NCBI GenBank assembly: GCA_021155985.1 | Contig: JAJNBA010000005.1 | Span: 61,855 to 125,854 of the forward strand | Source: Actinomycetes bacterium | Lineage (GTDB): Bacteria; Actinomycetota; UBA4738; HRBIN12 | Length of the DNA: 64,000 nt | Direction of reading: 5' to 3' | Shown: piece by piece, positions 27,252 through 45,371 of the stretch | Numbering within the stretch: position 1 is the first letter of the stretch | How the letters are laid out: each line of letters starts with the position of its first letter | The notes under the pieces: model-generated | Databases searched by the model: none | Told to the model about the DNA's origin: nothing | Seen by the model: only the letters and a program-made list of their open reading frames with translations | Program-made: the position numbers and the translations under genes

Positions 27252-28186
27252 GACGGGACGATCTCGGTGCCCGCCTCGCCGCGGAGCACCGCCGGCGCCT
27301 CGTCGAGGTCACCGATCATCACGCGGGTCCCGCCGGCCTCGAGGAAGTCGATCGCGGCCTGGACCTTCGGTCCCATCGAGCCGGCGCCGAACTCCCCACG
27401 TTTCAGCAGGTCCGCGGCCTCGTCGGCGGTCATGCGATCGATCGCGTCCGGATAGAGCGTGCCGAACCCTCGCTGGACCTTCTGCACGTCGGTGAGGATC
27501 AGCAGCGTGCTCGCCTCCACCTCGGCGGCGAGGATCGCGGCCGCCAGGTCCTTGTCGACCACGCCTTCCTTGCCGATCAGACGTGGCCCCTTCTCGATCA
27601 CGGGTACCCCTCCCCCACCGCCGGCGATCACGATCACCCCGTCGGCGACCAATCGCTTCACGATCGGCGTCTCGACGATCGAGTAGGGACGCGGGGACGG
27701 CACGACCCGACGCCACCCACCGTGCGGGTCCTCCTTCATCACCCAGTGGCGTTGCTCCTCGAGCCTGTGTGCCTGGGCCGCGGTGTAGAAGGGACCGATG
27801 AACTTCGATGGCTTCCGGAAGGCCGGGTCCTGCGGTCGGACCCGCGTCAGCGTGAGCACCGTGGCGACCGGGCGCTCCATCCCTCGCTCGAAGAAGACGT
27901 CGCCGATCGTCACCTGGAGCAGGTAGCCGATCAGCCCCTGACTCTCGGCGCCACAGACGTCCAGTGGCATCGGGGACACCGTCTTGGCCGCGGCCTCCTG
28001 CTGGATCAGGATGCGTCCCACCTGCGGGCCGTTGCCGTGCGTGACGACGACCTCCCACCCCTCGGCAGCGATCTCGGCGATCCGCTCCGCGGCGGTGCGG
28101 GCCGCCCGATACAGCTCCTCGAACGTGTCGTCGGCACCGCGTCGGAGCAGCGCGTTGCCGCCGAGCGCGACGACGACGCGTTCCAT
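27248..28186 (-). CDS. arcC: Carbamate kinase
   Basis: 312 aa of amino-acid-kinase fold with canonical carbamate kinase motifs (VVALGGNAL, VVTHGNGPQVG, AGGGGGVPV). 4-nt overlap with the downstream gene. Confidence 0.85.
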   Translation of the reverse strand: MERVVVALGGNALLRRGADDTFEELYRAARTAAERIAEIAAEGWEVVVTHGNGPQVGRILIQQEAAAKTVSPMPLDVCGAESQGLIGYLLQVTIGDVFFERGMERPVATVLTLTRVRPQDPAFRKPSKFIGPFYTAAQAHRLEEQRHWVMKEDPHGGWRRVVPSPRPYSIVETPIVKRLVADGVIVIAGGGGGVPVIEKGPRLIGKEGVVDKDLAAAILAAEVEASTLLILTDVQKVQRGFGTLYPDAIDRMTADEAADLLKRGEFGAGSMGPKVQAAIDFLEAGGTRVMIGDLDEAPAVLRGEAGTEIVPS

Positions 28187-28229: not shown

Positions 28230-29540
28230 TTACACGACCGGCCGCAGCACGTCGAGCAGCTGCGGCGATTCCGGAAGCACGTCGAGGTCGTACCGCACCC
28301 GAACGGCGGGCTTGCGGATGTCGATCACATGACGGAGGTCGATCGGCGTCCCGATCACCACCAGGTCGGCGTTCGCTGCGTCGATGATCTTCGCCATCTC
28401 GTCGAGCTGACCCTGGCTGTAGCCCATCGCGGGCAGGACCGCTCCCACGTCGTATCTCTCGAACGTCTCGGCGATCGTCCCCACCGCCCACGGCCGCGGA
28501 TCCACGATCTCGGCGGCGCCGGAGCGCTGCGCCGCCACCACACCGGCGCCGATCTTCATCTCCCCGTGCGTGAGCGTCGGACCGTCCTCGACCACGAGCA
28601 CCCGTTTCCCGGCGATCGCAGCGGGATCGTCCACCGTCACCCTCGAGTTGGCCTTCACCACGGTGGCCATCGGATTCGTCTGCGCGATCGTCTCCTCGAG
28701 CCGCGCGACCTGTTCCGGCGTCGATGAATCCATCTTGTTGATCAGGATCACGTCGGCCCGGCGGAGGTTGGCCTCGCCGGGGTGATACCTCGTCTCGTGG
28801 CCCACCCGGAGAGGATCGACGAGCGCGATGTGAACGTCCGGCAGGTAGAAGGGAAGATCGTTGTTCCCTCCGTCCCACAGGAGCACGTCGCCCTCGGACT
28901 GTGCCTGCTCGAGGATCGCGGCGTAGTCGACGCCCGCGTAGATCACGGTTCCCGTGGTGATGTGTGGCTCGTACTCCTCACGCTCCTCGATCGTGCAGTG
29001 GTGGCGATCGAGATCCTCGAGCTCCGCGAACCGTTGGACGCGCTGCGCCGTGAGGTCGCCGTACGGCATCGGATGGCGCACCGCGACCACCTTCTTGCCG
29101 GCCTCCTTCAGGGTCGCTGCGACCGCGCGGGTCGTCTGCGACTTCCCGACGCCGGTGCGGACGGCCGTCACGGCCACGGTGGGGATGGCAGGCTTCAGCA
29201 TCGTGGCGTCCGGCCCCAGCAGCAGGAAGTTCGCTCCGGCCGCGAGCGCCTCGCTCGCCTTGTGCATGACGTGCTCGTGCGAGACGTCGGAGTAGGCGAA
29301 CACCACGTCGTCCACCTTGAGCTGGCGGATCAGCCGTGAGAGCTCGTCCTCCTCGTGGATCCGGATCCCGTCCGGGTAGCGCTCCCCGGCGAGCTTCGCG
29401 GGATAGGTCCGGTCGTCGATGTACGGGATCTGCGTCGCGGTGAACGCGACGACCTCGGTGGAGGGGTCGTCGCGGAAGACGACGTTGAAATTGTGGAAGT
29501 CGCGGCCGGCGGCTCCCATGATCAGGACACGACGCGACAT
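28230..29540 (-). CDS. P-loop protein of the cyclic-2,3-diphosphoglycerate-synthetase-like family (assignment from recollection)
   Basis: 436 aa. N-terminal MSRRVLIMGAAGRDFHNFN and Walker-A GVGKSQT. Overall size and architecture match my recollection of cPGS homologs. No other family fits better from sequence alone. Confidence 0.5.
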   Translation of the reverse strand: MSRRVLIMGAAGRDFHNFNVVFRDDPSTEVVAFTATQIPYIDDRTYPAKLAGERYPDGIRIHEEDELSRLIRQLKVDDVVFAYSDVSHEHVMHKASEALAAGANFLLLGPDATMLKPAIPTVAVTAVRTGVGKSQTTRAVAATLKEAGKKVVAVRHPMPYGDLTAQRVQRFAELEDLDRHHCTIEEREEYEPHITTGTVIYAGVDYAAILEQAQSEGDVLLWDGGNNDLPFYLPDVHIALVDPLRVGHETRYHPGEANLRRADVILINKMDSSTPEQVARLEETIAQTNPMATVVKANSRVTVDDPAAIAGKRVLVVEDGPTLTHGEMKIGAGVVAAQRSGAAEIVDPRPWAVGTIAETFERYDVGAVLPAMGYSQGQLDEMAKIIDAANADLVVIGTPIDLRHVIDIRKPAVRVRYDLDVLPESPQLLDVLRPVV

Positions 29541-29693: not shown

Positions 29694-31327
29694 GTGGGCG
29701 CGTTCTCGCCGACGCGCGGACGTCGTTCGCAGCGCTCGGCCGGTCGTTCCGGTCCCCCGATATCGCGAAGGCGCTGGCGGCCTACCTCGCGTTCACGATC
29801 ACCGAATGGGCGGCGTTCATCGCGCTGATCGTCTACGCGTACGAGGACGGCGGCAGCGTCATGGTCGGTCTGGCGAGCCCCTTGCAACTGATCCCCGCCG
29901 CGCTCATCGCACCGGTGGGGTCGGTCCTCGGAGATCGGCACCGCCGCGAGCGGGTGTTGCTGTACGCCTATGCCTCGCTCAGCGCGACGACGACGCTGGC
30001 CGCCGTCGCATTGCTCACCACCGCTCCGGCCCCGCTCGTCTACGCGTCGGCCACGACCGCGGGGTGGATGATCACGCTCGTCCGTCCCACGCATGCCTCC
30101 CTCCTCCCGCGGGTGGCTCGCACGCCGGAGGAGCTCTCGAGCGCCTTCGCTGCGAGCAGCCTCCTCGAGAGCTTCAGCATCCTCCTCGGCCCACTCCTCG
30201 CCGGTGGACTGATGGCGCTGGCGCCGGGTTCTCTTTCGCGATCCCGCGTGGTGGATGCCGCCCTCGCCGCGATGCTCTTCCTGGGCACCGTGAGCGTGGC
30301 TTCGATCCGGGTACGCACGGAGCCCGCGAAGGAGGGAGGGACGTCCGGCGTCCGGGTCGTCGCATCCGATGCCGTCGAGGGCGTCCGGGCGGTGGCCCAG
30401 GATCGCCGTTCGCTGCTCCTGATGGCGACGGTGGGGCTCTCGATGGTCCAGCTCGGGTTCGTCGACGTGTTGATCGTGGTCCTCGCCGTCGACTCGTCGG
30501 CACGGGCGACGCCGGCGTCGGCTTCCTTACCGCCTCGATCGGCGTCGGCGCCGTCGTGGGAGCGACGCTCGCGGTCGGCCTCGCGGCGCGGTGGCGGGCA
30601 TCCCGATCGTTCCGGTGGGGGGTCTCGTGGAGCGGACTCTCGATCGCCGGGATCGCCGCGCATCCGGCTCTGGCGGGCTTCTTCCTGGCGATGAGCGGGG
30701 TGGGAGGCGCGCTCGCCGATGTCAACGGGCGGGTGATGCTTCAGCGATTGATCCTGGACAAGCAGCTGTCACGCGCGTTCGGGGTTCTGGAGTCGGTCTA
30801 CATGGCCGGCGAGGGTCTCGGCTCCTTCCTCGCGTCGCTCATCATCGTCGCGATCGGGCCTCGATGGACCTTGTTGATCGCCGGCGTCCTCCTGCCGGCC
30901 GTCGCCCTGCTGGGTCGCCGAGCCCTCATCGCGCTCGACGTCGGGATCCGGATCCCCTCGGAAGAGATGGCGCTCCTGCGATCGACGCGGTTCTTCACCC
31001 CGCTCCCCACGCCGATGCTCGAACGACTGGCGAGGAACCTCGTCCCGATCCACGTGCCGGATGGATCCGTCGTGATCACGCAGGGCGACGCGGGCGATCG
31101 CCTACGCGATCGTCGAAGGCGCGGTGGAGGTTCTCGAGGGTGGTCGGCGGATCGGGACGCTGGGGCCGGGCGGATCGTTCGGAGAGATCGCCCTGATCCG
31201 CGATGTCCCCCGGACCGCGACCGTGATCGCCACGACCGAGAGCAAACTCCTGGCGCTCGATCGGGACGAGTTCCTCCGGGCCATCACCGGTCAGAGGCGG
31301 CATCGGAGGAGGCCGACGGACTGGTGA
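29694..31327 (+). pseudogene. MFS transporter fused to a C-terminal cNMP-binding domain, disrupted by >=3 frameshifts
   Basis: Coding signal hops frames: GTG 29694 MGAFSPTR (frame 0) -> SFAALGRSFRSPDIAKALAAYLAFT...LIVVLAVDS (frame 2, through ~30492) -> GTGDAGVGFLTASIG...QGDAGDR (frame 1, through ~31100) -> [41 protein letters not shown] (cNMP-binding, ends 31327). Confidence 0.6.
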
Positions 31328-31378
31328 CGGAGCGGCTCGACGAACTGGAGGCGACCCGCGAACCGTAACCGAGGGAGA

Positions 31379-32200
31379 TCAGATCGGGGACCAGCCGGCC
31401 GCCGCCACGTGCCCGAAGGGACGGCCGAAGTGCCCGACGCAGACCGTCCATCCTTCCCTGTCCGCGGCGTCGATCCAGAGCGCGCGATGCTCTGCCGCGA
31501 GCTCGGGATCCTCGTCGTGGTTCGACCGCCACGTGGGATGGACCACCTGAGGCGTCGTGTGGAGGAGGTCGCCGACGAGCAGCAAGGTGGCGTCCGCTTG
31601 CTCCAGCTGGACCACCCGGTGCCCCGGCGTGTGCCCGGGTGCGTGCCGCAGGGAGAGCCCCGGCATGACCTCGTGATCCGTCGGGTCGAGGTCGAGCATG
31701 CCGAGCCCCTCGAGGCCGGCCATCGCGAAACGGCCCGTGAAGTCCTTCGGCGTCCGGTGGGTAGCGAAGAACGTCCAGTCCTCCGGATGCACGTGGTACC
31801 GAGCGTTCGGGAACAGCGGACTGCCGTCGCCCGCGCACGCGCCGCCCGCATGGTCGCCGTGCAGGTGCGTGAGGATCACGTGCTGCACGCTGTCCGGAGA
31901 GACCTCGATCGCGGCGAGCTCATCCTCGAGCCGCCCCGCGACGTCGAAGGGTGGTCGGCCGAGGCCGCCGATCCCCGTATCGACGAGCACCGGGCCATCC
32001 GGGTGGCGGATCAGGAAGGCGTGGACGTGCCACGCCCAGCTCTTCGCGTCGTCGGGAGGGAACGCCCACGGGAACCGGGAGCGGTGTTCTCCCCAGTCGA
32101 CGTCGTGGCCGGGCGCCTCGTCGTCGAGCGGCAGAGGCGCCCATCCATCGCAGAGGGGCACGACCTCGAACGATCCGAGCGTGAACGGCTCGTGCGGCAC
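31379..32200 (-). CDS. MBL-fold metallo-hydrolase
   Basis: 273 aa. THLHGDHAGG metal-binding motif and beta-lactamase-like fold. Confidence 0.8.
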   Translation of the reverse strand: MPHEPFTLGSFEVVPLCDGWAPLPLDDEAPGHDVDWGEHRSRFPWAFPPDDAKSWAWHVHAFLIRHPDGPVLVDTGIGGLGRPPFDVAGRLEDELAAIEVSPDSVQHVILTHLHGDHAGGACAGDGSPLFPNARYHVHPEDWTFFATHRTPKDFTGRFAMAGLEGLGMLDLDPTDHEVMPGLSLRHAPGHTPGHRVVQLEQADATLLLVGDLLHTTPQVVHPTWRSNHDEDPELAAEHRALWIDAADREGWTVCVGHFGRPFGHVAAAGWSPI

Positions 32201-32209
32201 CCCACGAGC

Positions 32210-32791
32210 CTAGCGGCGAGGCGCGCGCTCGACGTCGGCCGGCTCGTCGATATCCACCAGGGTCCGACGCCCCGGATCGAGGGCGGCCCAGGAAGGCTCG
32301 TCCACCACCACGGTCCGGACGGCCGAGAGGAGATCCCGGAGCCTTCGCCGTCCACTCCCGAGGAGGACCGCGACGGCATCCGCGGCCGGCTCGGTCCGCA
32401 CGACGCAGGGAAGCGGCCTGGCGTCCCCGCCATCGGAGAGGATGACCGCCACGGCGCCGGTCTCCCGGCCTGCCCGGAGCATCTCCCGGAGCACGGGCGG
32501 TTGGAGGTCCGGCATGTCGCCGCCCGCCACGATCGCCCACGTCGCATCGGCGATCTCGAGCCCCGCAGCCAACCCGCGGAGCGGGCCCTCGTCGGCGGTC
32601 GAGTCACGAGCGAAGGTGACGGAGGCACCGGCGGGCATGGACGGTTCCTCGATCTGGGGGCCGATCACCACGACGACGCGATCGCAGATGTCGAGGAGTC
32701 GGAGGACCGGATGGTGGAGCAACGGCCGACCGTCGATCTCCTCGGCGAGCTTGTCGCGGCCGAACCGTCGGGAGCGGCCTCCCGCGAGCAC
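32210..32791 (-). CDS. mobA: Molybdenum cofactor guanylyltransferase
   Basis: 193 aa. LAGGRSRRFGRDK N-terminal motif of MobA, GTG start. Sits immediately downstream of the formate dehydrogenase genes. Confidence 0.8.
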   Translation of the reverse strand: MLAGGRSRRFGRDKLAEEIDGRPLLHHPVLRLLDICDRVVVVIGPQIEEPSMPAGASVTFARDSTADEGPLRGLAAGLEIADATWAIVAGGDMPDLQPPVLREMLRAGRETGAVAVILSDGGDARPLPCVVRTEPAADAVAVLLGSGRRRLRDLLSAVRTVVVDEPSWAALDPGRRTLVDIDEPADVERAPRR

Positions 32792-32804: not shown

Positions 32805-33767
32805 CTATCTCGGTCGTCGGTCGTCGCGACCCCTCCGACTCTGCACGTAGGAGAACCCGAACCGCCCCTTGATGCAGAGGTGGCCGCTCGTCACCGAGTG
32901 GTCCTCCGGCGACGATACCTTGACGATCTCGTTGTCTTGGACGTGCACTTCCAGCTCGCACCCCACGCCGCAGTACGGGCAGATCGTGTTCGTAACGGTC
33001 TGCGCGTCCTCGTCCCACGTCTCCTCCGCTCGCATGTCGTGCTCGGACTTGAACATCAGGGCACCGGTGGGACAGACACCGATGCAGTTCCCGCAGTACA
33101 CGCATGCGGACTCGTCCAGCGGCACGGCGAACTCCGTGGAGATCCTCGCGTCGAAGCCGCGACCTGCCACCGCGATCGCGAACGTGTTCTGCGCATCGAC
33201 CCCGCACGCTTCGACGCACTTGTAGCAGAGGACGCACCGCTCATAGTCGCGGACGTACAGCTCGTTGTCCACCTTCACGGGCTGGGCGACGGTCTCCGCG
33301 ATCGTCGGGTCGGGGTCATGATGGTGACCGGCCCACCGCTCGTCGCGCTCGCCGGTCTCCATCGGTTCCATCGCGGCCCCGTAGCGCGACGGATCCGCTC
33401 CGTACTCCCCCATCCATCGGAGCCAGTCGGTGGAGGCGAGGCTCGTGTCCACGCTCGAGGCGAGGAACTCCATCACGAGCTTCCGCGAATGGCGCACGCG
33501 CTCGGTATCGGTCTGCACCTTCATCCCGTCCTCGACGGGCCGGGAGCACGCCGGGACCAACACGCGCGAGCCCTCTACCTCGACCATGCAGACCCGGCAG
33601 GCGTTGACCGGCGTGAGGTTGCCCGCGTAGCACATCGTCGGTGTATCCACGCCCTCCGCCCGGCAGGCGTCCAGGATCGTCGCACCTTCGGGGGCCCGCG
33701 TCGTTCGACCGTCGATCTCCAGGTCGAGGAGCCGCCGGGGCCGGTCGAGCGGCACGGCCTGGCTCAC
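32805..33767 (-). CDS. Formate dehydrogenase alpha subunit, N-terminal Fe-S module (NuoG/FdsA-N-like: 2Fe-2S, 4Fe-4S ferredoxin domains and the FS0 CxxCxxxC...C motif)
   Basis: GTG 33767 overlaps the upstream stop (GTGA). MSQAVPLDRPRRLLDLEIDGRTT...CRVCMVEV..., CVLCYKCVEAC, CVYCGNCIGVCP, ICPYCGVGCELEVHV...GHLCIKGRFGFSYVQ. Ends exactly where the catalytic subunit (35694..37628) begins by alignment to E. coli FdhF. Confidence 0.8.
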   Translation of the reverse strand: MSQAVPLDRPRRLLDLEIDGRTTRAPEGATILDACRAEGVDTPTMCYAGNLTPVNACRVCMVEVEGSRVLVPACSRPVEDGMKVQTDTERVRHSRKLVMEFLASSVDTSLASTDWLRWMGEYGADPSRYGAAMEPMETGERDERWAGHHHDPDPTIAETVAQPVKVDNELYVRDYERCVLCYKCVEACGVDAQNTFAIAVAGRGFDARISTEFAVPLDESACVYCGNCIGVCPTGALMFKSEHDMRAEETWDEDAQTVTNTICPYCGVGCELEVHVQDNEIVKVSSPEDHSVTSGHLCIKGRFGFSYVQSRRGRDDRRPR

Positions 33768-35626
33768 GCGGCACCCCCGTCGAAGACGCCCAGCTTGGAG
33801 ATCGCGGACTGGACGGCGTTGGCCGCCGTCTGTCCGAGGCCGCAGATCGACGCGTCGCGCATCACCCGGGCCACCTCGTCGATCAGGGCGAGCTCGTCCT
33901 GGGCGGAGCCGATCGGGGTCCCCGCCACGAGCCGATGGAGCGCTTCCTCCTGCCGCACGGTTCCCACGCGGCACGGCACGCACTGCCCACAGCTCTCGTC
34001 GCGGAAGAACCGTGCGATCCGCAAGCACAGATCGACCAGGTCCGCGCGCTCGTCGAAGACCATGATCACGCCGGATCCGAGCGTGTAGCCGCCCTGTCGC
34101 GCGTCCTCGAACGTCAGCCTCGCATCGAGCATGTCCGGGCCCACGAACCCCCCGGCCGCTCCACCCAGCAGGACCGCCTTCAGCGTGCTCCCCCGAGGGA
34201 CACCGCCGGCGAGTGCGATCAGGTCGCGGACGGTCGCCCCGTGCTCGACCTCGTAGACACCGGGTCGCTCAACGGCACCGGAGAGACAGAACAGCCTGGG
34301 TCCGGTGGACCCCTCGGTGCCGATCGCAGCGTAGGCGTCGGCTCCGATCCGGAGGACCTCCAGGACGTTGATCAGGGTCTCCACGTTGTTGATCGCCGTC
34401 GGTCTGCCGAACACACCGAACGTGACCGGGAACGGCGGCTTGTTCCTCGGCTCTCCGCGCTTCCCCTCGAGCGAGTTGAACAGGGCCGTCTCCTCCCCAC
34501 AGATGTAGGCTCCGGCGCCGCGGCGGAGCTCGATGTCGAAGGTCCTGCCGCTGCCCATCACGTCGTCACCGAGGGATCCGTGCCGTCGCGCCTCTCCGAT
34601 CGCGTGCTCCATCCGCTCGGTCGCGAGCGGATATTCACCCCGGATGTACACGAAGCCTCGGTCGGCACCACACGCGAACCCCGCGACCGTCAACGACTCC
34701 ACCACAGCGAACGGGTCTTGCTCCATCACCACGCGGTCCTTGAACGTGCCCGGCTCGGACTCGTCGGCGTTGCAGACCACGTAGCGAGGCCCCGCGGGCT
34801 GGGTGGACACGGCCTGCCACTTGACGCCGGTCGGGAACGCGGCCCCGCCGCGACCCAGGAGCTTCGCTTCGGTGATGGCCTCGATCACGCGGCCTGGACC
34901 CATCTCGTACGCCGCGCGCAGCGCCTCGTACCCTCCGTGCGCGCGATAGTCGTCGATCGACGTGGGGTCGACGACGCCGGCGCGACGGAGCAAGCGCAGG
35001 CTGTCTCGGGATCCCGCATCCGCCGTCTGCGGAGCTCCCACGCCGCCGGCGCAGATGACGGCGGAGTCCGGCGCGACGACCTCGGCCACGGTCTCGCGCG
35101 TCGCGCCGCCGAGGGCGACCTCCGGTCGTCCCGCCCGCTGCGCGAAGACGGCCGGCGCCTGCTCGCACATGCCGAGGCACGGCGAACGGACCCACGTCCA
35201 GCCGCCGGCGTCTGCCCCTTCCGGCCCCGCGTCGCGCTCGAGCTCCCCGCAGAGGGCGAGGCCGCCGGCTCCCCTGCACGCGAGGTCGTCGCACACGTGG
35301 ACCACGTTGGCGGGTCGCTCCTCGACGCTGAACATCGCGTAGAACGTCGCCACGCCGTACGCCTCGGCCGGCGGAACGGAGAGCCGCTGGCACACGTAGT
35401 TCAGCCCTCCGCGGCTGATCCAGCCGACCCCCGCCTGGAGCGCGTGCAGGGCCGGCAGCAGCAGGTGCCGCTGCTCGCGCGCCTCGCGACCGGCGCGGAC
35501 GACGCGGAGATCGTCCGCGCTCCGCTCGGTGGCGCCCACCCAGCCGGTCTCCGGCGGCCCGAGGAGCCCGTCGACCGCGGCACGTTCTTCCGCGGTCGGC
35601 GCGGCCTCCATCAGATGCAGGTCCAC
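33764..35626 (-). CDS. NAD(H)-binding diaphorase subunit, fused NuoE-like (2Fe-2S thioredoxin-like) and NuoF-like (FMN, NADH, 4Fe-4S) domains (FdsG-FdsB fusion)
   Basis: 620 aa. CDDLACRGAGG...C...C NuoE motif, then GGAAFPTGVKW, GEYPLA, CGQCVPCR NuoF motifs. Confidence 0.85.
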   Translation of the reverse strand: MDLHLMEAAPTAEERAAVDGLLGPPETGWVGATERSADDLRVVRAGREAREQRHLLLPALHALQAGVGWISRGGLNYVCQRLSVPPAEAYGVATFYAMFSVEERPANVVHVCDDLACRGAGGLALCGELERDAGPEGADAGGWTWVRSPCLGMCEQAPAVFAQRAGRPEVALGGATRETVAEVVAPDSAVICAGGVGAPQTADAGSRDSLRLLRRAGVVDPTSIDDYRAHGGYEALRAAYEMGPGRVIEAITEAKLLGRGGAAFPTGVKWQAVSTQPAGPRYVVCNADESEPGTFKDRVVMEQDPFAVVESLTVAGFACGADRGFVYIRGEYPLATERMEHAIGEARRHGSLGDDVMGSGRTFDIELRRGAGAYICGEETALFNSLEGKRGEPRNKPPFPVTFGVFGRPTAINNVETLINVLEVLRIGADAYAAIGTEGSTGPRLFCLSGAVERPGVYEVEHGATVRDLIALAGGVPRGSTLKAVLLGGAAGGFVGPDMLDARLTFEDARQGGYTLGSGVIMVFDERADLVDLCLRIARFFRDESCGQCVPCRVGTVRQEEALHRLVAGTPIGSAQDELALIDEVARVMRDASICGLGQTAANAVQSAISKLGVFDGGAA

Positions 35627-35693
35627 GGCAACCTTCGCTTCCAGGGGGCTGCGCTCGCGCCTTCGACGCTCGCTCCTCGGGTCCCCGGCCCCG

Positions 35694-37628
35694 TCACTCG
35701 CCGCCCCCGCCGCCGCTCGCGACGGCCGGTTCCTCGAGCTTCTCCACGCGGACCGCGGTCGCCTTGAACTCCGCCGTCCCCGACTTCGGATCCCAAGCGT
35801 CGATCGTGAGGTTGTTCACGTCCACCTGGTCGGGGAAGTGCAGCGTCATGAACAGGAGACCGGGTCGCAGGCCCAGGGCGAGCCGGACCGGCGCCACGAC
35901 CTCGCCTCGTCGGGAGAGAACCCGGACCCGCTCCCCCTCGCGGAGCCTGAGGCGCTCCGCGTCCTCCGGGGACATGTCCAGTGTCTCCTCGCGTCGGAGC
36001 GGCGAGGTGTACTCGCCGGTCTGCACGCCGGTGTTGTAGGAGTCCAACCGACGACCGGTGGTGAGCCGGAACGGGTAGTCCTCGTCGAGCTCGTCTACGG
36101 GGGGCTCGTAGAGCACGACGGAGAACGGCGCCTTCCTCCCCTGCTCTGCCGGATCCTCGGACCACAGCCGCCCATGGAGGAACGTCGTTCCGGGATGCTC
36201 GTCGTCCGGGCACGGCCATTGGATCCCACCGAGCTCCTCGAGCCGCTCCCACGCCATCCCGGCGTGCATCGGCGACAGGCGCCGGACCTCCTCCCACACG
36301 TCGTGAGCGGAAGGGTCGCCCCAGTCGTGCCCCAGTCGAGCGGCGAGCTGCGCGATGATCCAGATGTCGTCCCGGGCATTCCCCGGTGGTTGCAGCGCGG
36401 GCCGCACGCGTTGCACGCGCCGCTCGCTGTTCGTCACGGTCCCCTCCGATTCGAACGCCGAGTTCGCCGCCGGCAGCACGACGTCGGCCATCTCCGCGGT
36501 GTGCGTCAGGAAGATGTCCTGGACGATCAGGATGTCGAGGTTGGCCAGGAGCTTGTGCGTGCGCTGGTTGTCGGCCTCGGAGGCCGCCGGGTTCTCTCCG
36601 ATCACGTAGAGCGCTGTGAGCTCGCCTTCCTCCATCGCCTCGAACATCTGGGAGAGATGCCACCCCTTCTTGGGGTTGATCTTCGATCCCCACTCCTGCT
36701 CGAAGCGAGCCCGCACGACATCGTTCTCGACCTCCTGGAAGCCGGTCAGGTGGTGAGGGATCGCGCCCATGTCGCCACCGCCCTGGACGTTGTTCTGGCC
36801 CCGCAGCGGGTTCAGCCCCGATCCGTACGTCCCCACGTGCCCGGTCAGAAGGCCGAGGTTGATCAGGGCCAGCACGTTGTCGGCGGCGTTGTGATGCTCC
36901 GTGATCCCGAGGGTCCAACAGATCATGGCGCGGTCCGCCTTGGCGTAGGCGTGCGCCACCTCGCGGATCACGTCCGCCGGGATCCCGGTGACCTCCGCGC
37001 CCCGCTCGAGCGTCCAGTCCATCACCGAGGCCACGTAGTCATCGAAGTCCGTCGTCGCGAGCTCGATGAACGCGCGGTGATGCAGATCGTTCACGATGAT
37101 CTCCCGAGCCATCGTGTTCGAGAGCGCGATGTCGGTCCCGACATCCAGGCCGAGCCAGAGGTCGCCCCACTCGGCGGACTCGGTGCGGCGGGGGTCGACG
37201 ACGATCAGTCGCATGCCCTTGTGGATCCCCTTCAGGACATGGTGGAAATAGATCGGGTGCGCCGCCCGGGCGTTCGAGCCCCAGAGCATCATGAGGTCGA
37301 CGTGCTCGACCTCCTCGTATGAGCTGGTACCGCCTCCGGCACCGAAGACCGTGGCCAGACCGACCACGCTCGGCGCGTGTCAGGTGCGGTTGCAGCTGTC
37401 GATGTTGTTGCTGCCGAGGGCCTGACGGAAGAACTTCTGGGCTGCGAAGTTCATCTCGTTCGTGGCCTTCGAGCAGCTGAACAGGCCGACCCCCGTGCCG
37501 CCGTGACGCTCCGTGGCGGCCCGCAACCCGTCGGCGGCCCGGTCGAGGGCCTCCTCCCAGGTCGCGACGCGCAGCTCGCCGTCCTCGCGCACCATCGGCT
37601 CGGTGAGTCGGGTGAGCCCGTTCGGCAT
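35694..37628 (-). CDS. fdhA: Formate dehydrogenase catalytic (molybdopterin) subunit, selenocysteine-containing; in-frame TGA at 37380..37382 read as Sec
   Basis: ATG 37628 with AGGGAG Shine-Dalgarno (MPNGLTRLTEPMVREDG...). ...GSNNIDSCNRT-TGA-HAPSVVGLATVFGAGGG aligns with E. coli FdhF ...NNVDCCARV-U-HGPSVAGL. Track ORFs 37380..38246 and 35694..37367 are the same frame split only by this TGA. Downstream RGQNNVQGGGDMG and other bis-MGD domain motifs present. Confidence 0.8.
37336..37358 (-). promoter_or_regulatory. Candidate bacterial SECIS hairpin downstream of the FDH UGA
   Basis: mRNA 5'-CUGG(C)CAC GGUCUUCG GUGCCGG-3' starts about 24 nt after the UGA. 7-bp stem with one bulge and a GGUC-containing apical loop, as in fdhF-type SECIS elements. 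Confidence 0.45.
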
Positions 37629-37754
37629 CCCGCTCCCTTCTGGTCGTGCTGGCCGTCGATCAGCAGCCGGACGTCCCGGCCGCACGGCGATTCTAGGCCC
37701 CTGCGGTGCCCCCGGGATGGGAGTTGGAACGCCGCGCCGTCTACCGTGTGCGGG

Positions 37755-38558
37755 ATGACCGAGCGTGGCTCCACGCGGGAACGTGCCCGCGAGCGGGGAG
37801 GCCTCCTGGATCGCCTGCGAGGCCGGAGGTCGCGGATCTCGCCCCACCCCGGCCCGGTGGACGCGGAGCAGGACGCGTCCACCAGCAAGTCGGGGGCGCT
37901 CCGCGCCGCGATCTTCGGGATGAACGACGGGCTCGTGTCGAATCTCTCCCTCATCTTCGGCGTGGCCGGATCGGTCGTGGAGCGTGACGTGGTGGTCATC
38001 GCCGGGATCGCCGGTCTTCTCGCGGGAGCGTTCTCGATGGCGGCAGGCGAATACGTCTCGATGAAGGTGCAGCGGGAGGTCTTCGAGCAACTGATCCACA
38101 GGGAGGCCCATGAGATCGCCACGCAGCCCGAGGAAGAGCTGCAGGAGCTCGCGGCGATCTACGAATCCAAGGGCATCGGGGCGGAGACCGCGGCGACGAT
38201 CGCCGCCGAGCTGATGAAGGATCCGCAGATCGCGCTGGCGACGCACGCACGCGAGGAGCTCGGGATCGACATGGAGGAGGGCCTCGGCTCCCCGTGGGCG
38301 GCCGCCGGATCCTCGTTCGGGACGTTCGCGATCGGTGCCGCGGTCCCGCTCCTGCCCTTCCTGTTCACGTCGGGCGGCTCGGCGGTCGCCGTCTCCGCCG
38401 GCCTCTCGGGGGTGACCCTGTTCGCCGTGGGCAGCGCGATGACCGTGCTCACCGGTCGGAGCGCGTTGTTCTCGGGCGCGCGGATGCTCGCGATCGGCGC
38501 GGTCGCCGCGACGATCACGTACGGGGTCGGCGCCCTACTGAACGTGGCCGTCTCTTAG
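37755..38558 (+). CDS. VIT1/CCC1-family (vacuolar iron transporter-like) membrane protein
   Basis: Real start ATG 37755 (MTERGSTRERA...); upstream part of track ORF 37377..38558 is antisense to fdhA. FGMNDGLVSN motif and C-terminal TM helices. Divergent from fdhA, convergent with fdhD (4-nt overlap). Confidence 0.8.
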   Translation: MTERGSTRERARERGGLLDRLRGRRSRISPHPGPVDAEQDASTSKSGALRAAIFGMNDGLVSNLSLIFGVAGSVVERDVVVIAGIAGLLAGAFSMAAGEYVSMKVQREVFEQLIHREAHEIATQPEEELQELAAIYESKGIGAETAATIAAELMKDPQIALATHAREELGIDMEEGLGSPWAAAGSSFGTFAIGAAVPLLPFLFTSGGSAVAVSAGLSGVTLFAVGSAMTVLTGRSALFSGARMLAIGAVAATITYGVGALLNVAVS

Positions 38559-39403
38559 TTCGCGTCTCCGACACGTTCGGGATGCGTGTACACGTTCAGC
38601 CGCTCATCGCGGACGAAGCCGACCAGCGTCATGCCGAACCGCTCGCCCGCCTCCACCGCGAGGGATGAGGGCGCGCTCACCGCGCTCACGATCGGGATGC
38701 CGGCGACCGCCGCCTTCTGCACGATCTCGAAGGAGAGCCGGCCACTCACCTGGAGGACGTGGTCCGCGAGCGGGACTCGACCGGCCAGCACCTGCTCCCC
38801 CACGACCTTGTCCACGGCGTTGTGACGGCCCACGTCCTCTCGGACGGAGACGACGCGACCGTCCGGGGAGAAGAGACCGGCTGCGTGGAGGCCCCCCGTC
38901 CGTTCGAAGACCTTCTGGGCCTTCCGGAGTGCATCGGGAAGGCCGAGCAGAGTGGCGGCATCGACGGTCGTTCCGGTGGCGACTGGGGCGCACCGGACCT
39001 CGATGTCGTCGAGGGCCGCCTTGCCACACACCCCGCAGGACGAAGTGGCGTAGAAGTTCCGCTTGAGACGGTCGAAGTCGAACGGCCGCACGAGCGTGAC
39101 CGAGACGATGTTGTACTGCTGATCCTCGCCGGGGAGCGTGTCGCAGTAGGCGACCCGGCTCACGTCCCCGGGCACGATCAGGCCCTCGGTGAACAGGAAG
39201 CCCACGGCGAGCTCGAAGTCGCCACCAGGGGTCCGCATGGTGACGGCCACGGAGCGCTGTTCCTGACCAGGGCCTTGCACACGGATCTCGAGCGGCTCCT
39301 CGGCGGCCAGGGTGTCGGTCCGCTCCGAGCGGACCCCGTCGTTCATCGCGACGACGTGCACGTTCGCGATGTTCCGGCGGAGAGGCTGCGCTGCGGTCGC
39401 CAT
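38555..39403 (-). CDS. fdhD: Formate dehydrogenase accessory sulfurtransferase
   Basis: 282 aa from ATG 39403 (MATAAQPLRRN...). FdhD motifs SSCGVCGKAAL, DVGRHNAVDKV. Confidence 0.85.
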   Translation of the reverse strand: MATAAQPLRRNIANVHVVAMNDGVRSERTDTLAAEEPLEIRVQGPGQEQRSVAVTMRTPGGDFELAVGFLFTEGLIVPGDVSRVAYCDTLPGEDQQYNIVSVTLVRPFDFDRLKRNFYATSSCGVCGKAALDDIEVRCAPVATGTTVDAATLLGLPDALRKAQKVFERTGGLHAAGLFSPDGRVVSVREDVGRHNAVDKVVGEQVLAGRVPLADHVLQVSGRLSFEIVQKAAVAGIPIVSAVSAPSSLAVEAGERFGMTLVGFVRDERLNVYTHPERVGDAN

Positions 39404-39932: not shown

Positions 39933-41147
39933 CTAGTGGGAGACGGCGGCGGCGGCGATCTCGGAGACGAGCTCTCGCTTCCAGAACCGCTCCAGCGCGA
40001 ACGGCGCGATCAGATCGGGGACCTGGTTGTCGGCGATGAGGTCGGCCATCGTGACGCCGACGATCGGTGTGGCTTTGAAGCCGTAGGTTCCCCAGCCGCC
40101 GTCGATCAGGAAGCCCTCCACGTCCGTGAGGCCCATGATCGGCGAGTAGTCGGGCGTCACGTCGCAGAGCCCTCCCCAGGCTCGCATGAGTTTCACCTTG
40201 CCGAGCATCGGGAGGAGCTCGAGGGAATGGGCCGCCGTGACCTCGAGGAAGTCGAGCGTCGACTCCTGCGAGTACGACGTGTAGGGCTCGATCTCCGAGC
40301 CGATCAACACCTCGCCCCGGTCGGTCTGCGAGATGTACACGTGCAGCGTGGCCGAGACCAGGATCACATCGAGGAAGGGCTTCAGCGGCTCCGTCACGAA
40401 CGCCTGCAGCGGGTGCGTGACGATCGGCGTCTCCACCCCCGCCATGCGGCAGACCTCGCTCGTCCATCCCGCCACCGCCGAGATGACGATGCCCGCGGCG
40501 ATGTCGCCCCGGTTCGTCCGGACGCCGGTGACGCGACCGTCGCGGACGTCGATGTCGGTCACGTCGGTGCCCTGATGGATGTGCACACCCATCCGGTCGG
40601 CCATCCGCGCGTACGCCCAGACGACGGCGTCGTGGCGGATCACGCCCCCCGGCGGGTGGTAGAGCGCGGCCATGATCGGGAAGTCGGGGTGGGTGGAGAG
40701 ATCGAGCTCCGGGCAGAGCTTCGCGATCTCGTCCGGGTAGATCACCCGCGAGTCCACGCCGAGGAGCCGGTTCACCTCTGCGCGCTCGTGCGCGACGATC
40801 ACGGCGCGCTCGGCATGGGCGAGGGTCAGGTGGCCCTCCTGGGAGAGCAGGAGGTTGTAATCCAGCTCCTGCGCGAGCTGCTCGTAGAGCCGGAGGGACT
40901 CCTTGTAGAAGGCCACGCCCTCCGGCGTTCGGTAGTTCGCCCGGACGATCGTCGTGTTGCGGCCGGACCCGCCGGCGCCGATGTAGCTCTTGTCGAGGAC
41001 CGCGACGTCGCGGATGCCGCGCTTCGCCAGCTCGTAGGCGATCGCGAGCCCGTGGGCGCCGCCGCCGACGATCACGACGTCGTAGGCATCCTTCATCTCG
41101 TGACGGCGCCACATCCGCCACGGCCTGAAGTACCGGATCGGGTGCAT
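39933..41147 (-). CDS. soxB: Heterotetrameric sarcosine oxidase beta subunit family (SoxB; could equally be N-methylglutamate dehydrogenase subunit)
   Basis: 404 aa from ATG 41147 (MHPIRYFRPWRMW...). FAD motif DVVIVGGGAHGLAIAYELA. ATGA overlap with the soxG stop. Confidence 0.85.
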   Translation of the reverse strand: MHPIRYFRPWRMWRRHEMKDAYDVVIVGGGAHGLAIAYELAKRGIRDVAVLDKSYIGAGGSGRNTTIVRANYRTPEGVAFYKESLRLYEQLAQELDYNLLLSQEGHLTLAHAERAVIVAHERAEVNRLLGVDSRVIYPDEIAKLCPELDLSTHPDFPIMAALYHPPGGVIRHDAVVWAYARMADRMGVHIHQGTDVTDIDVRDGRVTGVRTNRGDIAAGIVISAVAGWTSEVCRMAGVETPIVTHPLQAFVTEPLKPFLDVILVSATLHVYISQTDRGEVLIGSEIEPYTSYSQESTLDFLEVTAAHSLELLPMLGKVKLMRAWGGLCDVTPDYSPIMGLTDVEGFLIDGGWGTYGFKATPIVGVTMADLIADNQVPDLIAPFALERFWKRELVSEIAAAAVSH

Positions 41148-41773
41148 CAGCGCCAGCCTTCCGCTCGGAGGGCCTGCCACCCGGCCGGCGCGCCGCCGAG
41201 GCTCGTCACGATGCCCGAGAGCGTCTCCCACACGTACCGGCCGAACTCTGTGGCCACGAACACCTCGAGGAGGGGGAACGGGAGTTCGCGGCGGACCAGC
41301 AGCGCCCGGACCTCGGCGATCGGTGCGCCGGCCGCCGCGCCCGGCGGAAGGGTCGAGGGATCCCACGAAGTGGCACGCTGGACCACCTCCGGCAACGCCG
41401 GCCCGGCCAGCGCCACGCCGGCGAACAGGTGGGTCACGTCGGTCACCATCGCCCCGGCCCCGGCGACGGGTTCGATCGCCCGGATCAGCCTCCCTTCCGC
41501 GTCTGGCGCTCCGAGCAGCACCGCCCACTCCGCCGAGATCCGCGCGAGGACGGTGTCGGCCGGCGAGGGCAGCGCCTCCGGGATGCGGCCCCGGATGTCC
41601 ACCTTGGCGCGTGCCGTGATGTCCGCGATCGCCACGCGATCGCGGATCGCCGCGCGCTCCTCCGCGTGGTTCCCGTACGAGGCGGGGATCTCCCATCCCG
41701 CCTCCTCCACGAACACCGCCCCGCGGCGCGACGACAGCCGCGCCGCGGGTGAGCGCCGGATGGCCGTGCTCAC
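41147..41773 (-). CDS. soxG: Sarcosine oxidase gamma subunit family
   Basis: 208 aa from GTG 41773 (overlaps the soxA stop as GTGA). SoxG-like sequence ...VSTAIRRSPAARL...FGRYVWETL.... Confidence 0.7.
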   Translation of the reverse strand: MSTAIRRSPAARLSSRRGAVFVEEAGWEIPASYGNHAEERAAIRDRVAIADITARAKVDIRGRIPEALPSPADTVLARISAEWAVLLGAPDAEGRLIRAIEPVAGAGAMVTDVTHLFAGVALAGPALPEVVQRATSWDPSTLPPGAAAGAPIAEVRALLVRRELPFPLLEVFVATEFGRYVWETLSGIVTSLGGAPAGWQALRAEGWR

Positions 41774-44580
41774 GACCGGAGCCTCTCGCCGCGCGGGTCG
41801 TAGAACGGATCGATCCGGACCGTTCCGATCGTGTGGCTCCCGCCGAACTGGATCTCGAACGTGCTGCCGTCCGCGGCCCACTCCGCGGGCACCCACGCCA
41901 GCCCGACCACGCCACCGACGGCCTCGCTCCGCCTCGCCGAGGTGACCCGGCCGACCCACGCTCCCTCGCGCACCACGGACGCGCCTTCGGGCGGCAGCCA
42001 GCGCTCCGGCGCCGTGAACCCGACGAGCCGCTCGAGCGGGCCCCGCTCCTTCAAGTCGCGGAGCGACCGCAGACCGAGGAAGTCCTCCTTGTCGTCCTTC
42101 ACCATCCAGCCGAGCCCCGCCTCGTAGGGATCGGATTCGGCGTCCGTGTCCTGTCCCACGAGGATGTGCTGCTTCTCCAGGCGGAGGATCCGCTGGGCCT
42201 CCAGACCGAAGGCGACGATCCCGTGGGAGCGACCGGCCCCCATCACGGCGTCCCACAGGTGCTCGCCGTAGGCGGACGGGAAGTGGATCTCGTAGCCCGT
42301 CTCCCCCACGAAGCCGATCCGCAGCACCAGCGAAGGCACGTCCGCCACCGCCATCCTGGTCGCGGTCATGTACGGCATCGCCGACCCGGAGACGTCCGCG
42401 TCCGTGAGCGAGGTCATCACGTCGCGGGCTCGGGGCCCGGCCAGGTTGACGGCCCCGTAGGCCCCCGTCACGTTCAGGATGAGCGCGTCGAGGCCCCAGT
42501 CCGCGTTCCACCAGGTGATCCATCGTTCCAGCGCGGCCGTGTTCCCCGTCGTCACCGTGACGAAGAACTCATCGTCGGCCAGGCGAACGACGGCTCCGTC
42601 GTCGAGGATGACTCCCTCGTCGTTGAGCATCACGCCGTACCGGACCCGTCCCACGGCGAGGTCCGAGAACCGGTTCGGGTAGAGCCGTTCGAGGAGCTCG
42701 ACCGACTCGGGGCCTTTGATCCGGAACGTGCCGAGGGTGCTCACGTCGATCAGGCCGACTCGGTTTCGGACGGCGGCGACCTCCGCTTCGGGGGTCGTGT
42801 AGTGGTGAGGACGTCGCCAGTCCCCGGCCCACATGAACTCCGCGCCCGCGGCGACGTGCCGGTCGTGCATCGTCGTCTCCTTGCGCGGGGTGAGCCGGGC
42901 GCCGGCCAGCGTGCCCATCTCCACCGGTACCCACGGCGGCCGCGACGTGGTGGGCGACGTCTCGGCGAAGGACCGGCCCGTGATTGCGCCGCAGAGTCGT
43001 TGCGACGAGGCCATGCACGCCTTCCCCTGACAGGGGCCCATCGTGATCGTCGTGTAGCGCTTGAGGAGCTCCATCGAGTCGAACCCCTCGGCCGCGGCCG
43101 TCGTGAGCTCCTTCGCGGTCACGTCCATGCAGACGCAGGCGAACTGTTTCCCGGACGCCGCCGATGCCTCCGGCGGTAGGACGATCGGGTCTCCGGATCG
43201 AGCGGCCTCGCTCCGGAGTGCCGCGATCGACGCCGCGTCCACCGGGTGTCCCGATCCCGCCGCTGCCTCGAGACCCGCGAGCCTTCCTTGCGCCACGGAG
43301 GCCTCCGGAGAGCGGGCCCCCGCCACCGCCCCCACGGCCCACATGCGATCGGGCATCTCGTCCGGGAGGAAGGCCTGCAACGTCTCATCGAAGACCAAGC
43401 GCGCTCCGGCCTGCGCGAGGAGGTTCGTGGACGGCGTCTGCACGCAGGCGTTCACGACGAGATCGCAGGAGACCTTCTGCCCCGACGTCGCGCCGACGGT
43501 GCCGACGGACACGGCGCTCACCCGCCGCCGCCCGTGCGCGGACAGGATCGTGGCTCCGGCGAACACCGGGAACCCCTCCGGCCAGCCACCGTCGGAGCGG
43601 AGATCGACGACCGTCACCTCCGCTCCGGCGTCCTTCAGGGCCCAGGCGGTCGAGTAGCCGACGTTGTCGCCGGTGAGGACCACCGCCCGCCGGCCGGGGA
43701 GCACGCCGTAGCGGTGGAGCAGCAGATGCACGGCGGACGAGAGCATCACGCCGGGAAGGTCGTTGCCGGGGAACACCGCGGATCCCTCGACCGCCCCCGT
43801 GGCGAAGATCACGTGTTGGGCGCGGATCCGATACAGGGCGTCCGGCCCCGACGCCCCGATCAGCCCGCCACCGAAGACCCCGAACGCCGCCGTCTCCGCC
43901 AGGAACCGTGCTCTTGACCCGAGGGCTTCCCGCGCGAGCGCCGATCGGAGGGTGCTGCTCGCTTCCCCCAGGAGGTGGCCGCCGGCCTCGCGGCCCTGGT
44001 CGAGCAGGACGACCGATGCCCCCGCCTTCGCGGCCTCGGCCGTGGCCGCGAGGCCGGCCGCCCCGGCACCGATCACGAGGACGTCGGGGTGCAGGTTGAT
44101 CCGCCGGCGCCGCCGGTGATCGGGCTCCTGGGGCACCCTGCCCAGCCCGGCCTTCGAACGGATGTAGGGCTCCACGAGGGGCCATGCCCAGTGAGGGTGC
44201 TGGAAGATCTTGTAGTAGAAGCCCGGCGGCATCATGAACGAGAACGTGTTCAGCCATCCGTGGATGTCCCGGTCGGCGGAGGGCCATGCGTTCTGGCGTT
44301 CGACCCGCATGCCTTCCCGCGCGGGCTCGGTACAGGCGCGCACGTTGGGGATCCCGTCGATCTGCATCAGGCAGTTCGGGCACGAACCCGTCATGCACGA
44401 CAGCCCGCGGGGCCGGTGGTACTTGAACGACCGACCCGTGATCGTGACGCCCGCCGCCGCCAGCGCCGATCCCACGGTGTCCCCTTCGAACGCGGCGATC
44501 GTCCTGCGCTCGAGCCGGAACCTGATCCGCCGGTCGCGCCGGATCGCTTCGCCCTGACGCGCCGGGAGACGTTCGCTCAC
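41770..44580 (-). CDS. soxA: Sarcosine oxidase alpha subunit family
   Basis: 936 aa from GTG 44580 (GTGA overlap with the soxD stop). GDTVGSALAAAGV...SFKYHRPRG, NAD/FAD dinucleotide fold VLVIGAGAAGLAA, C-terminal folate-binding GcvT-like domain. Confidence 0.85.
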   Translation of the reverse strand: MSERLPARQGEAIRRDRRIRFRLERRTIAAFEGDTVGSALAAAGVTITGRSFKYHRPRGLSCMTGSCPNCLMQIDGIPNVRACTEPAREGMRVERQNAWPSADRDIHGWLNTFSFMMPPGFYYKIFQHPHWAWPLVEPYIRSKAGLGRVPQEPDHRRRRRINLHPDVLVIGAGAAGLAATAEAAKAGASVVLLDQGREAGGHLLGEASSTLRSALAREALGSRARFLAETAAFGVFGGGLIGASGPDALYRIRAQHVIFATGAVEGSAVFPGNDLPGVMLSSAVHLLLHRYGVLPGRRAVVLTGDNVGYSTAWALKDAGAEVTVVDLRSDGGWPEGFPVFAGATILSAHGRRRVSAVSVGTVGATSGQKVSCDLVVNACVQTPSTNLLAQAGARLVFDETLQAFLPDEMPDRMWAVGAVAGARSPEASVAQGRLAGLEAAAGSGHPVDAASIAALRSEAARSGDPIVLPPEASAASGKQFACVCMDVTAKELTTAAAEGFDSMELLKRYTTITMGPCQGKACMASSQRLCGAITGRSFAETSPTTSRPPWVPVEMGTLAGARLTPRKETTMHDRHVAAGAEFMWAGDWRRPHHYTTPEAEVAAVRNRVGLIDVSTLGTFRIKGPESVELLERLYPNRFSDLAVGRVRYGVMLNDEGVILDDGAVVRLADDEFFVTVTTGNTAALERWITWWNADWGLDALILNVTGAYGAVNLAGPRARDVMTSLTDADVSGSAMPYMTATRMAVADVPSLVLRIGFVGETGYEIHFPSAYGEHLWDAVMGAGRSHGIVAFGLEAQRILRLEKQHILVGQDTDAESDPYEAGLGWMVKDDKEDFLGLRSLRDLKERGPLERLVGFTAPERWLPPEGASVVREGAWVGRVTSARRSEAVGGVVGLAWVPAEWAADGSTFEIQFGGSHTIGTVRIDPFYDPRGERLRS

Positions 44581-44867
44581 GCGGGCGCGGCCTCCTGCTC
44601 CTCGTCCCGCGGGCGGTCCTGCGGCCGGTACGTCCGCCGGATCTCGTTCGTCGTCGTGTGCCGCTCCGCCAGGAACCACGCCCGACAGCCACTCTGGTGC
44701 ACCCACCACTCGGTCTGCCAACCGTTCACGTTCCGGCGGAAGTACAGGGCGGCGGCCAGTTCCCGGTCGGTCGCCGACGGGCTCGCGCGGCGGGTGGTCT
44801 CGCCGCCGAAGGAGAACTCGAGGGCCTCGCGCGGCCCGCAGTTCGGACACGTGATCAGGAAGGTCAC
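44577..44867 (-). CDS. soxD: Sarcosine oxidase delta subunit family
   Basis: 96 aa (track ORF 44577..44867), GTG start. MTFLITCPNCGPREALEFSFGGE...WQTEWWVHQSGCRAWF matches the SoxD zinc-binding fold. Confidence 0.8.
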   Translation of the reverse strand: MTFLITCPNCGPREALEFSFGGETTRRASPSATDRELAAALYFRRNVNGWQTEWWVHQSGCRAWFLAERHTTTNEIRRTYRPQDRPRDEEQEAAPA

Positions 44868-45222: not shown

Positions 45223-45371
45223 GTCGCGGATGGTACACGCCCCTTCTCACATGCCGTTCGGCGCAACCCGCTCAGATTGAACGCCTCGGTCACGTCGTGC
45301 TATACCGCCGCCAGCGGTTCCGGCGGCGCTCGGGGCCGGGAGGCCGAGCTTCCGGAAAGGGAGGGGGTCAA

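Follow-up and report, generated by a model that had tools for sequence, protein, structure and literature searches.

A predicted selenocysteine formate dehydrogenase with its alpha subunit divided between two genes just past the FS0 cluster

This analysis concerns a 64,000-nucleotide stretch of contig JAJNBA010000005.1 (positions 61,855 to 125,854; Actinomycetes bacterium, assembly GCA_021155985.1), referred to below as the window, and within it an operon in which the alpha subunit of a formate dehydrogenase (FDH) is encoded by two separate genes. All of its genes lie on the minus strand and run, in the direction of transcription, from the catalytic half through a NuoE-NuoF fusion (hereafter NuoEF) and the iron-sulfur (Fe-S) half to mobA. 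The locus very probably specifies a soluble, NAD+-linked FDH of the FdsABG/FDH1 kind, with selenocysteine (Sec) and a molybdenum or tungsten bis-molybdopterin guanine dinucleotide (Mo/W-bisMGD) cofactor, made up of three polypeptides instead of two to four. What is new here is the subunit architecture; the enzyme class, its cofactors, its chemistry and the decoding of Sec are already known.

An original prediction, made from the sequence alone, had placed the 2Fe-2S and 4Fe-4S domains together with the complete motif for the proximal [4Fe-4S] cluster, FS0, on the Fe-S gene (coordinates are in Table 1), and the Pfam domains and the motif itself bear this out. Fer2_4 (residues 13-88) is followed by two Fer4 domains (~177-236) and by Molybdop_Fe4S4 (257-309); the protein carries CPYCGVGC...HLCIKG and terminates 11 residues past ...YVQ. 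Its C-terminus reads ...KGRFGFSYVQSR followed by a basic tail of nine residues, and the first residues of the catalytic protein are MPNGLTRLTEPMVR, whereas fused relatives run across the same junction as ...KGRFGFDF(x5)RLTxPLIR....

The second half had been predicted to resume at the next aligned residue, and this is what two alignments show. The 672-position model TIGR01591 (Fdh-alpha) matches with positions 1-50 on Fe-S residues 261-310 and with positions 52-672 on catalytic residues 6-628, and R. capsulatus FdsA (6TG9_A) aligns with the Fe-S half over residues 25-304 and with the catalytic half over 308-934; the catalytic half also aligns with E. coli FdhH 61-691 and M. hungatei FdhA 64-683. 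Judged by alignment, then, the cut is exact, with no residue missing or duplicated between the halves relative to FdhF/FdsA. The natural border between the HoxU-like and FdhF-like modules lies at about residue 250 of FdsA (PMC7171172). The actual cut, at about residue 305, falls some 55 residues past that border and leaves FS0 with its relay lysine on the Fe-S side.

The catalytic protein, starting at ATG 37628 with MPNGLTRLTEPMVRE, consists of the Pfam domains Molybdopterin (PF00384, residues 7-430, 8e-68) and Molydop_binding (PF01568, residues 520-624, 1.4e-26), and the Pfam scan found no Molybdop_Fe4S4 (PF04879, FS0) domain in it; the entire Mo-bisMGD domain thus lies on this gene, as predicted. 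The active-site context is CNRT-U-HAPS together with RGQNNVQG (Arg276). Against TIGR01591 the complete catalytic half scores 636.3 bits, below the family cut-off of 666.25, and TIGR03129 (formylmethanofuran dehydrogenase subunit B) is a weak match.

The arrangement is conserved well beyond the source genome. A genomic scan, with one genome per species, returned several hundred matching stretches, of which the best 80 loci (65-94% identity) were analysed, and the Fe-S half was also searched against protein clusters, of which the 120 best-matching (78-95% identity) were inspected. All 120 are stand-alone proteins of 308-392 residues with the FS0 domain at the end, and in 80/80 loci the Fe-S open reading frame (ORF) ends 1-33 residues past an F-x-VQ motif. 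The comparison with orthologous loci that had been proposed, in search of a contiguous fdsA, thus revealed the opposite: the split is there in 120/120 of these clusters and in all 80 loci. In most of the 80, the Fe-S gene overlaps NuoEF by ATGA or GTGA, and in every locus reaching far enough upstream, with the single exception of L033, a catalytic gene that starts at the same residue and lacks FS0 lies on the same strand upstream of NuoEF. By their labels, the records belong to Actinomycetota, Chloroflexota, Acidobacteriota, Gemmatimonadales, Verrucomicrobiia, Vulcanimicrobiota and others, at least six phyla; some labels of metagenome-assembled genomes (MAGs) may be wrong, but that the spread is wide is clear.

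The residues expected to do the work are conserved with the layout. Sixteen Cys ligands (four for [2Fe-2S], eight for the two ferredoxin-type clusters, four for FS0) and Lys300 are invariant in 81/81 Fe-S sequences, as are Sec83, His84 and Arg276 (RGQNNVQG) in 54/54 catalytic sequences. All three genes are under purifying selection, with a ratio of nonsynonymous to synonymous substitution rates (dN/dS) of 0.07-0.13 against the closest relatives, at dS 0.5-0.85. The conserved layout, the dN/dS of ~0.1 and the invariant ligands support the view, already taken in the original prediction, of a functional domain-level fission as opposed to a frameshifted pseudogene.

The nearest truly fused FDH-type relatives (P0223, P0270, P0230, P0249 and P0263) are 38-44% identical in the Fe-S part; two of them, P0223 and P0270, are of the Sec type. 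Five proteins of the representative library that are longer or 44-57% identical (P0125, P0127, P0166, P0218, P0253) were considered as fusions or distant members and rejected as frameshifted fragments. P0227 (961 residues) and P0236 (976 residues) share the N-terminal Fe-S region with FS0, followed by a degenerate MopB domain and a C-terminal NuoE-like domain; lacking a Sec/Cys-His site and carrying the NuoE domain, they were rejected as fused FDHs. They are NuoG/Stn-like proteins, and illustrate how easily the N-terminal module recombines. A search of a plasmid collection for an annotated, cultured example gave canonical fused fdsA/fdhF genes only, at no more than 36% identity. On these sequence comparisons the split family is a discrete, conserved clade, and the split an old and widespread family trait, not a peculiarity of the source genome. 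The catalytic half is 62-70% identical across phyla, a high identity that suggests later horizontal spread.

On re-reading the sequence, the predicted coordinates, motifs, gene order, AGGGAG-ATG start and GTGA overlap were all found to be correct. The catalytic gene had also been described as one uninterrupted ORF, and this needs revision: an in-frame TGA breaks it into two pieces, 37380..38246 and 35694..37367. The description of both genes as having intact starts and stops stands for the Fe-S gene, and for the catalytic gene only if its TGA is recoded. The TGA, in the context ...NNIDSCNRT-TGA-HAPSVVGL..., sits at the FdhF-type active-site Sec/Cys position with His next, and a TGA occupies this codon in 64/64 related loci that cover it. 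Codon 83 most likely encodes Sec, which would make the catalytic half a selenoprotein gene; the case for recoding is built on a selenocysteine insertion sequence (SECIS) hairpin, on the universal TGA and on the sel genes found nearby in relatives.

Single-sequence folding after the UGA was no better than that of shuffled sequences (z = -0.6), and it is the comparative alignment that supports a SECIS. With positions numbered from the U of the UGA, a SECIS-like lower helix pairs +7..+12 with +39..+44 and an upper helix pairs +15..+21 with +27..+33, closed by the apical loop GGUCU at +22..+26. Across the 65 aligned sequences, 56 of them distinct, pairing in the upper helix is 93%; one of its pairs changes from G:C to C:G in 15/56 distinct sequences with zero violations, the substitutions being synonymous and at the third positions of Val and Ala codons, and none of 500 shuffles reached the covariation score of the hairpin. 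The apical loop GGUCU(G) and its distance from the UGA are the same in the E. coli fdhF SECIS.

Several observations pull in the other direction. The lower helix is weak (81% paired, with one pair mostly unpaired); a control slid by +3 gives a high score too, which is to be expected of GC-rich coding sequence; no Rfam SECIS family matched, with the window searched at gathering thresholds and the UGA region permissively, where hits were at chance level only; and no tRNA-Sec, selA, selB or selD lies within the 64-kb window, so that Sec decoding in the source genome is argued from its relatives. Among these, the Thermoleophilaceae MAG at locus L075 has fdhD, selD (SHGAGCGCK), tRNA-Sec (1176-1268) and selB (GHIDHGKT) at 214-3172 on the minus strand, directly beside the catalytic gene, and selD or selB is found at most 7 kb from the operon at four further loci (L043, L044, L047, L053).

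The diaphorase gene, NuoEF, encodes the Pfam domains 2Fe-2S_thioredx (residues 50-163), Complex1_51K (251-422), SLBB and NADH_4Fe-4S (533-611), and matches TIGR01959 nuoF at 3.6e-133. Its relatives in the PDB include FdsB (6VW7_B, 6TG9_B) and, from M. extorquens FDH1, the fused beta subunit (7E5Z_B, which matches residues 223-609), and its best matches there are the HydB/NfnB subunits of electron-bifurcating enzymes. Bifurcating HydB-type subunits carry extra C-terminal ferredoxin domains, whereas NuoEF closes with NADH_4Fe-4S at residue 611 of 620 and has none. The HydB/NfnB matches, together with the reversibility of metal-dependent FDHs (PMC7171172), would suit a complex that is real and has another job, as a CO2 reductase or with NADP+ or ferredoxin (by electron bifurcation) in place of formate oxidation with NAD+. 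We give this only an outside chance: besides the missing ferredoxin domains, most host labels belong to lineages commonly recovered from soil, for which an aerobic lifestyle is assumed, and the neighbouring methyl-group oxidation genes produce one-carbon (C1) units. NAD+ is the probable acceptor.

In the R. capsulatus FDH, electrons follow the path bisMGD-A1(FS0)-A2-A3-A5([2Fe-2S])-B6-FMN, and the His-ligated cluster A4 (His117, Cys121, Cys124 and Cys130 in RcFdsA) sits away from this path, at the interface of the dimer (PMC7171172). The Fe-S protein has all the ligands for A1, A2, A3 and A5 and lacks those for A4, there being no Cys where they would align in the comparison with FdsA (residues ~103-125). 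Clustering of neighbourhood ORFs, which is noisy in high-GC DNA, gave no conserved small ORF that could be an fdsD-like small subunit, and the operon has no room for such a gene: the gaps measure 67 nt between catalytic half and NuoEF, 13 nt between the Fe-S gene and mobA, and 9 nt between mobA and the metallo-beta-lactamase-fold gene.

A slimmer chance still attaches to the proposal that the two halves are not partners at all, with NuoEF and the Fe-S protein serving as a HoxU/NuoG-like diaphorase for another enzyme, the FS0-like domain a remnant, and the catalytic protein working without FS0. Cluster N7 of complex I is such an evolutionary remnant, and some enzymes of the dimethyl sulfoxide reductase family do work without FS0. 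The NCBIfam models with the highest scores for the Fe-S protein are those of hydrogenase and NuoG/HoxU families (NF005745 HoxU, 1.5e-39), and JGI gives the protein the name HndD. In Chloroflexota loci (L034, L041, L044, L049, L050, L059, L066, L067, L072), 0.6-4 kb separate the catalytic gene from NuoEF; the one gap that was read, in L072 (2028-4125, minus strand), holds genes on the opposite strand, by their translations an adenosine deaminase-like ORF and a PIN-toxin-like pair, and the two alpha-subunit halves are therefore in different transcription units. At the exceptional locus L033, in a Chthonomonadaceae-labelled MAG, the Fe-S gene (7001-8011, plus strand; 71% identity) stands alone, with neither NuoEF nor a catalytic gene in the 7 kb to each side of it. 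This lone gene could be relocated, could have a different partner, or could be a binning oddity.

Set against this, the break leaves nothing missing or duplicated with respect to FdhF/FdsA, all 81 sequences keep the relay lysine and every one of the four cysteines of FS0, unlike what is expected of a decaying remnant, the two genes co-occur in every locus reaching far enough upstream other than L033, and the neighbouring genes encode neither a hydrogenase nor another catalytic partner.

That fdsA was broken by a stop codon and misassembled, as a pseudogene or an artefact of assembly or rearrangement, is suggested by the TGA inside the catalytic frame and by frameshift-like breaks in nearby genes here and in a close relative, typical of error-prone assemblies, yet has a negligible probability given the same order, break point and TGA in independent assemblies from many studies and under several phylum labels, technologies and assemblers too different for a shared systematic error (k141/k127 short-read contigs, long-read MFD contigs), the dN/dS of about 0.1, the invariant ligands, and gene boundaries free of repeats or recombination sites. 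The search at these borders for repeats or recombination sites able to re-join the halves gave short chance matches only. A split intein or other protein ligation was rejected, since the tail of the Fe-S protein (1-33 residues, variable and basic) is too short to be part of an intein and the gene order is wrong for read-through.

Taking the halves as partners, the enzyme would assemble in trans, the FS0 lobe of the Fe-S protein docking on the catalytic protein where residues 1-60 of FdhH sit. Formate would be oxidised at the Mo/W centre of the catalytic protein, which would supply Sec83 as ligand together with His84 and Arg276. Electrons would then pass via the pterin to FS0 through Lys300, the counterpart of FdhH Lys44; with FS0 and Lys300 on the other protein, this first electron-transfer step would cross a subunit interface. 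From there they would run through the two [4Fe-4S] clusters and the [2Fe-2S] cluster of the Fe-S protein to the [4Fe-4S] cluster and FMN of NuoEF, and on to NAD+. The physiological role would be to oxidise formate arising from the neighbouring sarcosine/methyl-group oxidation genes, taking C1 units to CO2 with a gain of NADH; fdhD and mobA fit the maturation of a sulfurated bisMGD cofactor.

Canonical operons run fdsG-fdsB-fdsA (fdsGBACD; PMC7171172, PMC12571268). A single rearrangement, with its breakpoint just past FS0, may have moved the 3' two-thirds of fdsA and so yielded both the fission and the swapped order, while the N-terminal piece would have kept the usual place of fdsA, right after the diaphorase gene and translationally coupled to it.

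FS0 is found on the pterin-binding chain in every structurally characterised FDH, nitrate reductase and NuoG relative matched here. No FDH, or indeed any MopB enzyme, with FS0 on a separate polypeptide is described in the literature searched, although a description may exist elsewhere; the sole "split" FDH cases in that literature are annotation splits at a Sec TGA, for example PTH_1711/PTH_1712. We lean towards regarding this as the first described MopB enzyme with the proximal FS0 and relay lysine in trans, in which a pre-assembled NuoEF/Fe-S "socket" receives a separately matured Sec/bisMGD "plug", and as a design, probably spread horizontally, that occurs in lineages often found in soil, under at least six phylum labels, and is largely invisible to annotation. 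Such a natural enzyme would offer a ready-made test of how much the covalent link weighs in electron transfer and cofactor insertion, and points to a modular way of engineering FDHs, in which catalytic plugs could be exchanged on a diaphorase socket. More speculatively, the separation may allow the Sec/bisMGD protein and the Fe-S scaffold to mature independently, and termination at the UGA would leave an 82-residue peptide and no long Fe-S fragment to compete for the diaphorase, though the fused Sec-type P0223 and P0270 exist.

The consequence for annotation can be seen in the close relative L081, in which the gene caller output for the alpha subunit is three ORFs of 82, 568 and 320 residues, none of which passes the family cut-off. 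Given such split ORFs and the sub-cut-off TIGR01591 score, formate oxidation and selenium use may be under-counted in Actinomycetota, Chloroflexota and Acidobacteriota.

Table 1. Features of the split FDH operon and adjoining genes, in window coordinates.
Feature	Position	Strand	Remarks
fdhD (FdhD/NarQ sulfurtransferase/chaperone, FDH maturation)	38555..39403	minus	Pfam FdhD-NarQ 1.3e-68
VIT1-family (iron/manganese transporter-like) gene	37755..38558	plus	divergent, between fdhD and the catalytic gene
Shine-Dalgarno-like AGGGAG	37633..37638	minus	5 bases before the catalytic-half ATG (37628); read from sequence
Catalytic half of FDH alpha subunit	35694..37628	minus	644 codons including one UGA; own start; without FS0 domain
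In-frame TGA, read as active-site Sec codon (CNRT-U-HAPSV)	37380..37382	minus	codon 83
SECIS-like hairpin	37339..37376	minus	comparative alignment
NuoE-NuoF fusion, 620 residues (FdsG+FdsB equivalent)	33764..35626	minus	NAD(H)/FMN diaphorase with [2Fe-2S] and [4Fe-4S] sites
GTGA overlap, Fe-S gene GTG start/NuoEF TGA stop	33764..33767	minus	translational coupling
Fe-S half of FDH alpha subunit, 320 residues	32805..33767	minus	[2Fe-2S], two ferredoxin-type [4Fe-4S], FS0 [4Fe-4S] with relay Lys300
mobA-like molybdenum cofactor guanylyltransferase gene	32210..32791	minus	Pfam NTP_transf_3 2.4e-31
Metallo-beta-lactamase-fold gene	31379..32200	minus	after mobA

The surroundings of the three genes vary among the related loci. 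An fdhD homologue lies near the operon in most of them, mobA follows the Fe-S gene only in the closer Actinomycetota-labelled loci (L001-L036, L061, L064) and not in more distant ones, and the divergent VIT1 gene has the same placement in L081. A scan for promoters and terminators found no sites, and is uninformative in DNA of 70% GC. Farther upstream, the window has genes for C1/methyl-group oxidation, encoding a SoxB-like FAD oxidoreductase, a large SoxA-like protein (Fer2_4, SO_alpha_A3, GCV_T) and a DUF1989 + GCV_T protein (39933-45246, minus; 48499-50763, plus), with an amino-acid permease and an acyl-CoA-dehydrogenase-like gene between them. These sarcosine-oxidase-like and GcvT-type neighbours fit formate production upstream of the FDH.

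Beyond the metallo-beta-lactamase-fold gene, a gene for an MFS_1 transporter fused to a cyclic-nucleotide-binding domain (29806-31368, plus) looks frameshifted, with ORFs 29861-30694 and 29806-31368 in different frames; its orthologue in the close relative is an intact gene of 565 residues (L081, 10401-12098), and the copy here is either a pseudogene or the result of an assembly indel error. Next to a carbamate-kinase-like gene (27248-28186) there is an ORF of 436 residues (28230-29540, minus) with a coding-like GC content at third codon positions (GC3, 0.90) and no Pfam match at E <= 1e-5; the orthologous region of L081 is called as two ORFs (263 + 173 residues), which suggests indel errors in the L081 assembly.

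Among known systems, FdsABG(D) of R. capsulatus and C. necator (6TG9/6TGA) provides, for the Fe-S half, the nearest relative with a solved structure (1.7e-43, collinear with FdsA 25-304), and shares with the present locus the cofactor chain bisMGD-FS0-2x[4Fe-4S]-[2Fe-2S]-[4Fe-4S]-FMN (PMC7171172). In both, the region coding for the Fe-S clusters comes after the diaphorase gene, just as fdsA comes after fdsB, and a gene for an FdhD-type chaperone is present. FdsA is, however, a single chain of 958 residues, where here there are two proteins, cut past FS0, with the catalytic gene moved upstream; Cys386 of FdsA is replaced by Sec on our reading of the TGA; the His/Cys3-ligated A4 at the FdsABG dimer interface is absent; and FdsG and FdsB, separate in FdsABG, are fused. 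Identity of the Fe-S part to proteobacterial fdsA/fdhF is in the 30-40% range (~35% by tblastn).

The tungsten-containing alpha-beta enzyme FDH1 of M. extorquens (7E5Z/7VW6) likewise has a NuoE-NuoF fusion as its beta subunit, and its alpha subunit matches both halves described here, but as a single chain of 989 residues with an ordinary residue at the active-site position in the PDB sequence, presumably Cys. E. coli FdhH (FdhF; 1AA6/1FDO) shares the Sec-His active site, the Arg of RGQNNVQG, the FS0 motif CxxCxxxC...CxK and a SECIS hairpin directly 3' of the UGA; its FS0 is on the same chain (residues 1-60) and the enzyme feeds a hydrogenase complex, whereas here FS0 is separate and the partner is a NuoEF diaphorase.

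Two further systems resemble the split itself. In the NAD+-reducing [NiFe] hydrogenases, a NuoEF-type diaphorase is bridged to a catalytic module by HoxU, a small Fe-S subunit that stands alone and has homology to the N-terminus of NuoG and FdsA (PMC7171172); HoxU is without a Molybdop_Fe4S4 (FS0) domain, unlike the Fe-S half here. A precedent for a MopB catalytic unit carried on two polypeptides is FwdB/FwdD (FmdB/D) of formylmethanofuran dehydrogenase (PMC7171172). There it is the C-terminal cap that has been cut off, with FS0 remaining on the catalytic chain, whereas in the enzyme proposed here a cut on the N-terminal side parts FS0 from the metal cofactor.

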